Below, piece after piece: positions 2,821 through 59,800 of a DNA stretch of 64,000 nt. The position numbers and the translations under genes were made by a program. This DNA is from Eledone cirrhosa (lineage: Eukaryota): contig OZ024762.1 in NCBI GenBank assembly GCA_964016885.1, positions 12,152,001-12,216,000 of the forward strand. The letters are read 5' to 3'. How positions within the stretch are numbered: position 1 is the stretch's first letter; each line of letters starts with the position of its first letter. Below the pieces are notes generated by a model that had not been told where the DNA came from, ran no database searches, and saw only the letters and a list, made by a program, of their open reading frames with translations.

Positions 2821-5800
2821 GTAAGTAATACTTTCTTCTTGTATTTACTTCTTCGTTTCTTACTTGCATTCTACCTATACAACACATCCATTTATATATA
2901 TATATATATGCGAGCAAGACAACCACTCTTGCCTCAAGTGGGAAAACGCCCGTCCAGACCCATGCAAGCGTGGAATATGGATGTTAAACGATGATGATGA
3001 TGATGATGCTGATGATATATATATATAAGTAGTTCCACAACAGTTAGTTCACCATACCGAGAACAATTGTTTCACCTTATTCGGATCATCAGCTCGGTCT
3101 ACTCCGGGTAATAACACGCACACATATATATATATGTGTGTGTGTGTGTGTATGTATATATATATGATGGAGGCACATGGCTTAGTGGTTAGAGCATTGG
3201 CCTTGCAATCAAAAGGTTGTGAGTTCAATTCTCAGACCGGGTGATGTGTTGTTTCCTTGAGCAAGACACTTTATTTCACATTGCTCCAGTTTACTCAGCT
3301 GTAGAAATGAGATGATAGGGACTGGGGTCCTTATCATTCCACTGCAAAGTGGTTGTGGAGGTGCCACGGCAAAAAAAAGCACCCAGCACTCACTGTAAAT
3401 GAGGTTGGTGTTAGGAAGGGCATCCAGCTGTAGAAATCAAGCCAGAATCAGTTCCCGCCCAACCCTTGCAAGCAGGGAAGAAGCGGACGTAAAATGAAAT
3501 GATGAATGATGATGAGAGTGCTTCAAAAAGTTTGTGGAAAAAGCGGTTTAAGTTATGATGTTTATTTTTCAGCATATGCTCCATCTAGGTCAATGCAGTT
3601 CTGCAAGTGTTGAAGTCTATCTGTCTTTAAGCCCATCTGTAAAACTGAGGGCCATGTGATGTAAACCATGTCAAAGCAGCTTTTTTTACATCTTCAACTG
3701 GAGATCATCATCGACTTCATCTCTTCCACTTCTAAAACGACTTATCCATTTGTAGTTTGTTGATTTCTTTGGGGCATTGTTCCCATAAACTTGTTCTAGA
3801 GTGTCAATGACTTGGTTGCTTTTCCACCCTAGCTTCATTTGATGTTTTGATGGAGACTATGACTGTGCTGACTTCTGACTGGTGCTGCCACATTGCAACA
3901 TGTATTTAAGTGTTCATCTTAACTTACTACACTCTAAGGGGACTGGGCCACATCCAGGTCAAGATTCCATCTACTAATAGAATTATGTCCTTTAAAACAC
4001 CAGATGTCTTTCAAATGTACACACATATATATGTATATATGTATATATATATATTTCATTTTTTTTTTTCATTTCATTTTTACGTCCGCTTTTTCCCTGC
4101 CTGCAAGGGTGGGACGGGAACTGATTCTGGCTTGATTTCTACAGCTGGATGCCCTTCCTAACACCAACCTCATTTACAGTGAGTGCTGGGTGCTTTTTTG
4201 CCGTGGCACCTCCACGACGACTTTGGAGTGGAATGATAGGGACCCCAGTCTCTATCATCTCATTTCTACAGCTGAGTAAACTGGAGCAATGTGAAATAAA
4301 GTGTCTTGCTCAAGGAAACAACACATCACCTGGTTGTGTTGTATATATATATATATATATATATATATAATGGATATCAGCTCCTGCTTATTACTGGAAC
4401 TCTATAAGAATCCAGCCTCTATAATTCTCGGCAAAGACAACTGAGTATGTGGTCTTGATAAATGCTAACAAGCAAGAAACAGACTGTCTGTCGGCCGTTC
4501 TGCCGCTCTTTCTTGTTATTTGCCGAGAATAAGTAAGTGATATAGTCACTACTTTAAAACTCATAGTGAATGGTCTTTCTAAATGTTTTTAATTAAACAT
4601 ACGGTATATTGCCAAATATACATACATACATACATACGTATGTATGTATGTAAAAGGTAAACAGAAATAACAACACAATCGGTACAGTATATGGAACGGA
4701 TATATTAGGTTAACGCTTGATATAGCAGGAAGAGTGGTCTTAACGTTTCGGACGCTAGTCCTTCATCAGAAGAAAGAATGAAAAATAAGATAGATTGAGG
4801 GGACGGGTGGGATGGAATTGGAAAGAATGTCTTCAGAGAAAAATAACAAATCCATTCATGTTGACATCTCTTGGAAAACTGTTGGTGCTGGCGTTTTGTG
4901 TATGATTTATTTTTTAGAAAAGTGGATGATGGACCATATATATATATATATATATATATATATATATATATAATGCCGCATTATATATATATATATTGTA
5001 GTTAGAATGTAAGGCAACTGTGTTAGATGAATGTATGTATATTGTGAGTATATGTGTGTGTATATAGAGATAGATATGTAAGATCCTGGCTGAGGCGCCA
5101 AGCGGCCGGGATTTTACATATTTCTATACCGACCCTGTATCTCCCCATTTATTGAGTACTCCCGCCATGATTGGTTGTCTCCTTGGTCTCAGTACCGCAG
5201 ACCCCTCTCTCTATATATATGTATATACATACATCACTGTTGTCCCCCCTCCTCTCTCTCTTTCTCTCTCTCTCTCTCTCTCTCTCTCTCTCTCTCTCTC
5301 TCTCTCTCTCTCTCTCTCTCTCTCTCTCTCTCTCTCTCTATATATATATATATATATATATATACACACACACACACACATCACTTCTGCCTCTCTCTCT
5401 ATATATATATGTATAGACACACGCACACATCACTTCTGCCTCTCTCTCTATATATATGTATAGACACACACACACATCACTTCTGCCTCTCTCTCTCTCT
5501 ATATATATGTATATACACACACACACACACACATCACTTCTGCCTCTCTCTCTATATATATATATATACACACACACACACATCACTTCTGCCTCTCTCT
5601 CTATATATATATATATACACACACACACACATCACTTCTGCCTCTCTCTCTCTCTATATATATATATATACACACACACACACACATCACTTCTGCCTCT
5701 CTCTCTATATATATATATACACACACACACACACATCACTTCTGCCTCTCTCTCTATATATATATATATACACACACACACATCACTTCTGCCTCTCTCT

Positions 5801-56800: not shown

Positions 56801-59800
56801 CACATGTCTCACCATATCTCTCTCTGACCCCTACCACATGTCTCACCATATCTCTCTCTGACCCTTACTCCACGTCACACCCTATCTCTCTCTGACCCCT
56901 ACCACATGCCTCAACCTATCTCTCTCTGGCCCCTACACAGGTCACACCCTATTTCTGTGTCATTCCACCTCCAAACTACATACACTGCATTACATCATCA
57001 CATACACACACTCAGTGTGAAGAGAGAGAAGTGTGTGTGGTACATACACACATATACTGCATTACATCATCATACACAGACACACACACTCAGTGTGAAG
57101 AGAGGGAAGTGTGTGTGGTACATACACACATATATACTGCATTACATCATCATACACAGACACACACACTCAGTGTGAAGAGAGGGAAGTGTGTGTGGTA
57201 CATACACACATATACTGCATTACATCATCATACACAGACACACACTCAGTGTGAAGAGAGGGAAGTGTGTGTGGTACATACACACATATATACTGCATTA
57301 CATCATCATACACAGACACACACACTCTGTGTGAAGAGAGGGAAGTGTGTGTGGTACATACACACATATATACTGCATTACATCATCATACACAGACACA
57401 CACTCAGTGTGAAGAGAGGGAAGTGTGTGTGGTACATACACACATATATACTGCATTACATCATCATACACAGACACACACACTCTGTGTGAAGAGAGGG
57501 AAGTGTGTGTGGTACATACACACATATATACTGCATTACATCATCACATACACACACTCAGTGTGGAGAGAGAGAGAAGTGTGTGTGGTACATACACACA
57601 TATACTGCATTACATCATCACATACACACATATATACTGCATTACATCACATACACACACTCAGTGTGGAGAGAGAGAGATGTGTGTGGTACATACACAT
57701 ATACTGCATTACATCATCATATACACACACTCAGTGTGGAGAGAGAGAGATGTGTGTGGTACATACACACATATATACTGCATTACATCATCACATACAC
57801 ACACTCAGTGTGGAGAGAGAGAGAAATGTGTGTGGTACATACACACATATATATATATACAATGCATTGTGAAAAAAAAGTTTTGACTCCACACATATAT
57901 ATATATATATATATACACATGTGTGTGTGTGTATATATTACATTTATATATATAAATAAAAATCCATCAACCAATGACCTCTACCCATCCCAAGCCCCAC
58001 CCTCTCCTACCACCAGAAAAGAAAAGATATAAATACCACCACCTACTTGGACAGCCAGCTTCCTGATGATTTCTCACGAATGAAACAGTTCTAGTCCTGT
58101 AGAAGCTCTTCTATATTAAAACATATGTATATATATATTTATATATACATACATATATAAGACTAAACAAGTATACATACATATATATATATATATAACA
58201 TATATATTTGAAGAGATGTGTGGTGGTTCTCTCTCTCTCTCTCTGCTACCCCTCTTGTCTGCCCCCCCCCCCCCCGAAACACTTGAAACACAAAACATTG
58301 AAGGAGAAAGACAGGAACAACACAAAACAAGTCATTATTAAAACATGTTTAAATAAATAAATCTATCTTCTTTTATTGTGTAAGTGTGGTGTGTAGGAAT
58401 GTCATTGTAAATATATATTTATGTGTGTATGTATATATATATGTGTGTGTGTATATGTACATACATACATATATAAATATATATGTATATATATACATAC
58501 ATATATAAATATATATGTATGTATATGCATACATATATAAATATATATGAATGTATATGCATACATATATAACTATATGTGTATATATATATATATATAC
58601 ACATACATATACATGTATCTATCTATCTAGATATATATATTGTTGTAGTGTATCTATTGTTTACATGTTTCAGATTCTTGGAGTCTTTATTTCATCTGTA
58701 TAATTTATTTTGTACGTGTCTGTCTGGAAATAATGGTTTCTTTAAAGCTTATCTCCCTTTTTCTCCCTCTCCATCGTATGTCAGTTTTTTTATTTACTTA
58801 GTTATCTCCCCTGTTGCCCCTCTTTCTCCCACTACAAAAATCAACCTAGTTTAGGAGTAAACGACATTCCAGCCGTGGCCATCTCGTAGTTTTTAAAGTG
58901 TGTTTTGGACTGCACCACCTAACATTTACCTACCTTGTGTAACCCTTTTAATATGATACACCCCTTGGTTTCCACAGTATGAAGTTATTTATATTATAGT
59001 GTCTAAATGTTTTTCTGAAAAACCTTCCTATGTATTTTTACTTAAGAACCTCCGTTAAGTTATGTTCCGAACAAAAATTTAATAATGAGAAACTTATTGT
59101 ATTACTAAATCCCATCAAATTCTTAGTCACTTTGAAAATAATTTAAAAATTATAGGCAATGCCTTTCATAAGAATTAAAGTATTTATATTTATTTAAAAA
59201 CCTTCCATCATTGGCAGTATTGGTAGAGGGTCGGACGCCATGCTTTGACGCATAGAGTTACGGCCCTTGCCATTCTGAGTTCAAATCCCGCTGAGGTTAA
59301 CTTTGCCTTTCATCCTTACGGGGACGATAAAATAAAGTACCAGTAATACACTGGGTAATTGCTGGCCTTGTGCCTAAAGTAGAAACAATTATTTTATGTG
59401 AGAAATTTTGTTAAGTTATGTTCCAAGCATGAACTTAATAATGAGAAAGGTAATTATATGAGTAATTTCCTTCAAATTCTTGATAATTAAAAAATAATTT
59501 GAAAATTATGGGCTGTGTCTTTCATTAGAATTATGGTAGGGAAAGTAGGTATAGGAGGGTGATATATATACATATATATATGGTGGCTGCCAACTCGTTT
59601 TCGAGTACGGCCACTACTTTATATCCATGTAGGAGAACCCCTGCCAATGCGCTGAACGAGTGTTACTTTTTAGTCCAGCCAGCGACTTGAAAACTCTGGT
59701 ACAAACACTGCACCTGTGACAATTATTGACACATAGCGCTGGGCCCATGGTACCATGTGACGACAAGTGCAGAGAGATCTCCAGATATAAAGCAATGCCT

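Follow-up and report, generated by a model that had tools for sequence, protein, structure and literature searches.

Seven hammerhead motifs in the introns of REV3L

We analysed 64,000 nt of the Eledone cirrhosa genome (contig OZ024762.1; G000:C23:12152001-12216000 of a 3.0-Gb assembly), called here the window, in which seven hammerhead ribozyme motifs all lie within introns of the plus-strand gene REV3L. Very probably they are hammerheads carried by copies of seven repeat families, two of them traced to Penelope-like elements (PLEs) and the others likely to be kin or non-autonomous derivatives; the copies probably arrived as insertions into TA repeats and have little or no effect on the gene. 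An original prediction from this DNA had listed the seven motifs, and each is present where it was placed, on the strand assigned to it. We refer to them as S1 to S7:

3028 to 3101, minus strand: S1, a 74-nt PLE stub; hammerhead at 3056-3098 with a canonical core, palindromic helix III and GUU site
4376 to 4652, plus strand: S2, a copy of an approximately 320-nt unit lacking an open reading frame (ORF); hammerhead at 4449-4498 with a U3-A8 swap, hairpin helix III and GUC site (4492)
4639 to 4933, minus strand: S3, assigned to a Neptune-type PLE as its 3' end; the hammerhead, at 4738-4773, is minimal
14145 to 14490, plus strand: S4, assigned as the 5'-truncated 3' pseudo-long terminal repeat (pseudo-LTR) of a Hydra-clade PLE; hammerhead at 14398-14444 with a U4C core and GUA site (14440)
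29214 to 29424, plus strand: S5, a copy of an old family; damaged hammerhead at 29214-29346 with a branched helix II of about 100 nt
54678 to 55077, plus strand: S6, the 3' 400 nt of an approximately 627-nt ORF-less, retrozyme-like unit; hammerhead at 54737-54817 with an AUA site (54811)
57960 to 58120, plus strand: S7, a stub of an abundant family; hammerhead at 58057-58107 with a canonical core and GUA site (58101)

That the motifs are intronic, five of them on the sense strand, agrees with an exon map made by tblastn with mollusc homologues:

2634 to 2820, plus strand: REV3L exon with the POL3_N domain, 5' of the intron holding S1 to S4
15067 to 15141, plus strand: exon 3' of S1 to S4
approximately 23657 to 23738, plus strand: exon
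approximately 26445 to 26510, plus strand: exon
28438 to 28535, plus strand: exon 5' of S5
29908 to 30012, plus strand: exon 3' of S5
approximately 34235 to 34408, plus strand: exon
approximately 35209 to 35313, plus strand: exon
40293 to 47400, plus strand: giant central exon, 5' of the intron holding S6 and S7
60332 to 60376, plus strand, ends approximate: small exon (tblastn E=2e-7), 3' of S6 and S7

The exonuclease, polymerase and zinc-finger exons follow no more than 23 kb beyond the window's end. The giant exon (7.1 kb), in which runs of Ser, Asn, Asp and Thr abound, shows 77% identity to an Octopus bimaculoides protein. The O. bimaculoides record P0001 begins at the exon at 34235 and stops in the exonuclease domain, so its annotation looks split. 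In run X2 (contig data of a kind not on record), a 5,303-nt contig covers the exon at 15067-15141 only, a weak hint of spliced REV3L RNA with no bearing on cleavage; other contigs fall on the tail of S4.

Cores and helices of the sites

The motifs were scored with a descriptor comprising the core, three helices and UH, which was written after the sites were known; a stricter first version had found 1/7. Six of the seven pass; S5 fails because a 2-nt insertion precedes its GAAA. The original prediction had reported a CUGANGA core at every site. That description stands for S1, S3, S6 and S7, where CUGANGA, GAAA and UH are all canonical, and falls for S2 (U3-A8) and S4 (U4C); at S5 the letters are present and displaced by the insertion. 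The U3-A8 core is a printed hammerhead variant (PMC4209133), and U4C has been printed for a viroid, with considerably lower activity in vitro (PMC3088659).

These departures are shared within families. The U3-A8 core recurs in 9 of 11 aligned rows of the S2 family, none of which has a canonical core, and U4C in all 19 aligned rows of the S4 family, the rows being the copies closest to the window's, so that their conservation is not independent evidence. The two extra bases of S5 are missing from 14/14 other copies, and 3 of 15 rows of its family pass the descriptor. Helix II in this family (29226-29330 in the window) is a branched insert of about 100 nt with internal stems and some apparent paired changes. 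Locating its distal GAAA and helix I ended an alternative reading of S5, as a twister or a hairpin ribozyme.

The helices are similarly varied. S3 has a 4-bp helix I, a bulged A, a G10.1-C11.1 pair and ACGU as helix III, and is alone in combining an extra base after A9 with G10.1-C11.1; that position is U-U in S1 and S7, A-U in S6 and mismatched in S2 and S4. Helix II of S1 comprises 2 bp with the U-U at its base, and that of S7 the U-U plus 3 bp; helix III has 4 bp in S7 and 8 bp in S6. A palindromic or nearly palindromic helix III, which the original prediction gave to most sites, was confirmed for S1, S3 and S4 (palindromic) and S5 (nearly so), and replaced by a closable hairpin in S2, S6 and S7. 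Only S6 and S7 are at once sense-strand, intact and canonical in core.

Repeat families and their parents

Most sites had been described as lying in short unique islands between TA tracts. They are not unique: each belongs to a high-copy repeat, with between 148 and 3,326 candidates in the family searches (S1, 1,573; S2, 3,326; S3, 3,140; S4, 148; S5, 849; S6, 2,086; S7, 2,491). The copies of S4 are 98-99% identical and those of S5 80-87%. The association with TA repeats held: of 49 sampled descriptor matches, 73% had a (TA)5 tract no further than 250 nt downstream, versus 25% of random points. Ribozyme-bearing retroelement families that target TA repeats had been proposed as the source, with a search for Penelope reverse transcriptase (RT) or GIY-YIG neighbours as a check, and such parents were found for S4 and S3.

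The parent of S4 is full length at locus L103 (L103:4017-8480), where hammerheads at 4176-4251 and 8375-8450 flank an open 832-amino-acid ORF. About 45 nt past the predicted cut there is a TA tract; upstream lies a further copy, inverted and 5'-truncated. The window copy consists of the last 274 nt of such an element (14217-14490, the pseudo-LTR piece) and a 77-nt inverted piece (14145-14221). By eye, the ORF (P0005) contains RWR, DKT, CxCX5C, CxxC and CxH motifs, with an RT followed by a C-terminal GIY-YIG-type nuclease; these fit the published definition of the Hydra clade (a single ORF with C-terminal nuclease), and the (TA)n insertion and tandem or inverted structure are also as in Hydra-clade PLEs. 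Its nearest Atlas clusters lie at 0.98, led by one of cnidarian type, with HTH_animal in 25-38% of members. By these marks the element is identified as a young and intact PLE of the Hydra clade, and S4 as its 3' end. The L103 element has a 1.4-kb 3' untranslated region and the fixed U4C core; related subfamilies with U4C occur at L154, L176 and L210. A second Hydra-type ORF, 40% identical and with 687 open codons, lies at L105:2189-4249.

In the S3 family, RT or GIY-YIG remnants lie upstream on the same strand in 4/14 copies (L089, L091, L097 and L099). Across the broken copies L107, L108, L089 and L097, the parent shows DKG, a CX4CxxC linker and, at the C terminus, GIY-YIG, features by which we assign S3 to a Neptune-type PLE.

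Two further families look like non-LTR retrozymes, judging from their units. The S6 unit, of approximately 627 nt and with no ORF detected, is whole in several loci and forms a tandem trimer of period 627 at L111. The S2 unit (approximately 320 nt, with partial repeats too) is 68% like the 310-nt unit of a six-copy tandem array with a canonical core. This array, at L148:4969-7120 (G000:C3, within the span of a myosin gene), has one canonical hammerhead per unit, all antisense to the gene, besides one inverted sense copy; it is retrozyme-like and related to S2. PLE ORFs beside S6 copies (L018, L026 and L111) and S7 copies (L040 and L109) look like separate insertions and were set aside as parents.

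Copies of S7 are often arranged head to head with a gap of just 4-17 bases (14 such pairs in 100 rows from G000:C1, by eye). In 44 of 47 sampled copies, homology to one reference reaches at most 7 bases upstream of the core. The 5' edge of the hammerhead seems to be where truncation or inversion takes place, often breaking helix I, and copies of S1 look alike in this. Head-to-head hairpins of this kind would, speculatively, be double-stranded as RNA and a possible editing substrate.

Predicted folding and cutting of REV3L RNA

The original prediction raised the prospect that sense copies cut the nascent REV3L transcript. In its strong form, S6, S7 and perhaps S2 would cut fast and lower spliced mRNA, whether by accident or by co-option. 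S6 and S7 have canonical cores and a closable helix III, and trimmed S2, S6 and S7 are each predicted to fold as monomers into the correct three-way junction (helix I probability 0.95-0.97). Placed in their 30-nt flanks, however, all six intact sites have helix I probabilities of at most 0.18. Both are equilibrium predictions that ignore co-transcriptional folding; the in-context values would argue against fast cutting. S6 and S7 carry AUA and GUA triplets, which are weaker hammerhead cleavage triplets than GUC. No same-family partner was found within the window for the four copies whose helix III is palindromic or nearly so. The sense copies at issue differ by 2-5% from their families, with no locus-specific conservation apparent, and neither hammerheads nor sense copies are in excess at the gene (see below).

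Published systems bear on both sides. The distance from cut to next exon (S6, 5.5 kb; S7, 2.2 kb; S2, 10.6 kb) is comparable to the 9.9 kb of CPEB3, whose intronic ribozyme is reported to lower spliced mRNA (PMC10274809); slow intronic ribozymes left splicing unaffected and fast ones lowered it (Fong 2009, as cited in PMC10274809). On the other hand, a motif of the axolotl that cleaves weakly shares the U-U found at the base of helix II in S7 (PMC7229834), and single minimal PLE hammerheads gave no detectable cleavage and dimers low activity in the reported assays (PMC4209133). Fast cutting that lowers REV3L output thus seems very improbable. Some cutting of the pre-mRNA by S6, S7 or S2 may occur on these models, and is unlikely to be important.

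Density, strand and genome-wide abundance

Neither the gene nor its sense strand stood out in these counts. In 44 blind 10-kb stretches (440 kb) the descriptor found 39 matches, or 5.7 per 64 kb, and 47% of resamplings reached at least 6 per 64 kb (P=0.47). At the rate of other genes, six or more matches in the 84-kb REV3L span have P=0.38, and five of seven on the sense strand has p=0.45. There is no sign that REV3L is unusual in hammerhead density.

Strand was assessed over 909,975 bases, made up of 21 spans of myosin and dynein genes whose orientation is known, omitting a 314-kb myosin span on C3 that may or may not be one gene, a 2-kb span, single-exon matches and all but four dynein spans. 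The 54 matches divide into 23 sense and 31 antisense (p=0.34); taken as 35 insertion clusters, 11 are sense, 14 antisense and 10 both (p=0.69), and of five monomer-type matches two are sense and three antisense. A sense-strand preference was not detectable in these genes. At G000:C19:6705821-6811056 two dynein heavy chain genes with near-identical scores lie tail to tail, a recent inverted duplication or an assembly artefact.

These counts also bear on the idea that sense, monomer-competent intronic hammerheads are mildly harmful and purged genome-wide, the REV3L copies being survivors and not neutral passengers. The direction of the differences favours it, in that genic density is 3.8 per 64 kb against 5.7 in the blind sample and antisense matches outnumber sense; Xenopus retrozymes are, moreover, reported to be depleted in introns (10.64898/2026.07.22.740005). 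The strand differences are not significant, however, whether by match or by cluster, and one tandem array accounts for six of the antisense matches. Homologues found by sequence lean the other way for S7 (17 sense, 13 antisense) and not at all for S3 (8 and 8), and the blind sample overshoots the genome count. We consider purging very unlikely.

Two exact patterns were counted over the 3.0 Gb: that of the commonest hammerhead group gave 54,465 matches and that of the S7 core 19,114 (control 0 for each), 73,579 together, although neither pattern checks every helix. The commonest group has an AU-rich helix I, a helix II of 28-36 nt that differs widely among subfamilies and an 8-nt palindromic helix III; it often occurs as inverted pairs and has no descriptor match in the window. 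The blind sample held 21 matches of this group's pattern versus 8 expected from the genome count, and its straight extrapolation to 265,000 (bootstrap 163,000-374,000) was not taken at face value since it overshoots on this test. Calibration gives a genome total of about 101,000-118,000 descriptor matches. The genome here is about one tenth the size of the axolotl's, and its count is of the axolotl's order, the methods differing.

The folds compared with controls

Motif frequency exceeds that of dinucleotide-shuffled sequence, in line with the original prediction. Against the six passing sites, 100 block-wise dinucleotide shuffles of the window gave a mean of 0.1 and a maximum of 1, and a widened descriptor gave 0 in 50 shuffles. 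The blind stretches, which provide a check independent of the sites, gave 39 matches, compared with 0-1 over five rounds of shuffling; the three decoy cores yielded 1, 1 and 2. The 99 sampled motifs fall into 27 clusters whose helix sequences differ while pairing and palindromy are retained; in the S7 family, loop II varies freely and its stem is kept. Where pairing was not demanded, helix III was fully self-pairing in 51/64 matches, representing only 6 of 11 distinct sequences.

The Rfam hammerhead models had no match at gathering score in five loci spanning all seven sites, and no hammerhead stood among the 150 of 286 matches listed from an Rfam scan of the window, which microsatellite matches dominated. 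In a covariation test of S7 (35 rows, many truncated in helix I), 2 of 13 pairs showed double changes, and 48 of 500 shuffles reached the observed score.

That the motifs match by chance, or are vestiges without any catalytic past, is hardly credible: the missing Rfam call and the non-significant covariation would allow it, whereas near-zero controls, a hammerhead in both pseudo-LTRs of an intact PLE, pairing and palindromy held across 27 clusters and a constant S7 stem beside a free loop II speak against it. We regard the seven folds, on their sequence, as real and of a known kind.

Origin of the seven copies

We return to the explanation that the seven hammerheads are passengers in copies of PLE-related repeat families. 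It is preferred because of their repeat membership, the full-length Hydra-clade parent, the Neptune-type ORF, the ordinary density and the lack of a detectable strand bias. From known PLE biology, the element's nuclease would nick (TA)n, and its RT would then copy the RNA from the 3' end and mostly stop early, so that what remains would usually be the tail with the hammerhead, in many cases beside an inverted partner. The ribozyme would work for the element itself by cleaving tandem precursor RNAs, in most cases after dimerising via the palindromic helix III. Sequence 3' of the predicted cut is retained in the copies, from which we infer that the template was uncut there, or tandem or circular. 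Intronic copies that stand alone would be slow cutters or inactive: a partner is required by four, the core is altered or damaged in three, and the flanks are predicted to out-compete helix I.

Several results weigh against this explanation. For the families, the S4 parent ORF has neither an RT nor a GIY-YIG domain by Pfam, and BLASTP matched it weakly with a canonical PLE RT (E=0.26). The PLE link of S1 comes from a single copy, L056, in which a Hydra-type ORF begins about 210 nt downstream. Searches by tblastn with eight PLE peptides found no ORF linked to S2, S6 or S7. A parent of S5 was not established: Hydra-type nuclease remnants lie upstream of two copies, no shared DNA links them, and that parent is not claimed. 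For the folds, the S7 covariation, which does not exceed shuffles, weighs against it, as do the monomer folds predicted for trimmed S2, S6 and S7 and the neglect of co-transcriptional folding. For density, the strand test is small (54 matches, 35 clusters), so that a mild bias would be invisible in it, and antisense is slightly ahead; the genic rate lies below the blind one, ten neighbouring stretches (100 kb) hold just 4 matches, and the blind sample overshoots. Against the calibrated mean the window is 2-3 fold rich, which we do not count as enrichment because insertions are clustered, smaller chromosomes are richer (26 versus 13 matches in 22 stretches each), the descriptor was tuned and the window was chosen for this trait.

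The REV3L setting carries no weight here, the gene apparently being like others; the value lies in scale and variety. With 73,579 cores, and 99 motifs in 27 clusters, the genome is a large natural test set for PLE hammerheads, suited to questions of in vivo cutting, purging of sense intronic copies and the persistence of U3-A8 and U4C cores. The young, intact Hydra-clade PLE with fixed U4C is a candidate for asking whether retrotransposition needs cleavage. A bolder statement has only an outside chance of being right: that about 100,000-260,000 intact folds of dozens of PLE families, far more per Mb than the printed counts cited below, occur genome-wide, and that the monomer-competent families S6 and S7 cut nascent pre-mRNA in thousands of introns, including those of REV3L. 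If true, retroelements would thereby have supplied a brake that holds down what long genes produce.

Other features of the window

Copies resembling short interspersed nuclear elements, with transfer RNA-like heads, lie at 3178-3235, 33395-33454 and 62182-62239 (weak Rfam transfer RNA matches) and at 54110-54430; by eye, the head at 54110 resembles one at 3170. A near-perfect inverted repeat with (ACC)n-rich arms about a TA tract occupies 11610-11780.

Comparison with known systems

PLE hammerheads are already known, an octopus Hydra element included, and only the scale here is of some interest. In print, a cephalopod census was not found beyond Craig et al. 2021 and a count of 235 Rfam hammerhead matches in the giant squid (PMC6962438), and the supplements of PMC4209133, PMC7229834 and 10.64898/2026.07.22.740005 could list counts. 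The word "ribozyme" is absent from the main text, as far as available, of a 2026 O. vulgaris repeat paper (PMC13282606), and no ribozyme passage was found in the available part of PMC3365414.

The closest likeness is to the pseudo-LTR hammerheads of metazoan PLEs (Cervera and de la Pena 2014, PMC4209133). Shared features are the type I fold, short helix I, extra base before helix II and palindromic helix III; a genome populated by many heterogeneous families, for the most part in single copies derived from truncated PLEs; pairs on opposite strands separated by 100-700 bp; and the U3-A8 variant. The pseudo-LTR location is seen at both ends of the L103 element for S4 and through Neptune-type copies for S3, and one copy hints at it for S1. 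In contrast to that report, several families here lack G10.1-C11.1 (U-U, A-U or mismatch), S4 has a fixed U4C and S5 a helix II of about 100 nt. Scale differs too: about 2,000-9,000 hammerheads per genome are given there, against more than 73,000 exact matches here, by different descriptors. Other published counts are about 5,000 for the mussel and, for the axolotl, 126,247 (PMC7229834).

Among Hydra-clade PLEs (Craig et al. 2021, PMC8557442), Hydra-1_Obim of O. bimaculoides is already listed with a hammerhead and a (TA)n preference. The S4 parent shares with the clade the C-terminal nuclease, the RW[K/R], DKT, CxCX5C, CxxC and CxH motifs, the (TA)n targets and a hammerhead near the 3' end. 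It differs in length, at about 4.5 kb with its 1.4-kb 3' untranslated region (Hydra families are generally <3 kb), in having clear pseudo-LTRs, without which Hydra-1_Obim is listed in the cited part of that paper, and in a hammerhead of unlike sequence with a U4C core.

The S6 and S2-related units resemble animal non-LTR retrozymes (PMC7229834; 10.64898/2026.07.22.740005) in lacking an ORF, bearing one type I hammerhead each and occurring both solo and in tandem. Those retrozymes are likely PLE-derived, as the units here (the S6 trimer and S2-related hexamer) appear to be, and 42-44% of Xenopus retrozyme copies overlap introns (10.64898/2026.07.22.740005). At 627 nt the S6 unit, known here from DNA alone, exceeds the 150-450 nt reported for retrozymes.

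Finally, like the RECK and C10orf118 hammerheads and the CPEB3 ribozyme, which resembles that of hepatitis delta virus, the sense copies in REV3L are intronic ribozyme folds in the orientation of the host gene (PMC3088659, PMC10761166, PMC10274809). For those ribozymes, conservation among mammals or amniotes is reported, as is activity in vitro. Single locus-specific copies, as in CPEB3 and RECK, are not what we see in REV3L, where all seven sites are high-copy mobile stubs with no locus-specific conservation apparent.

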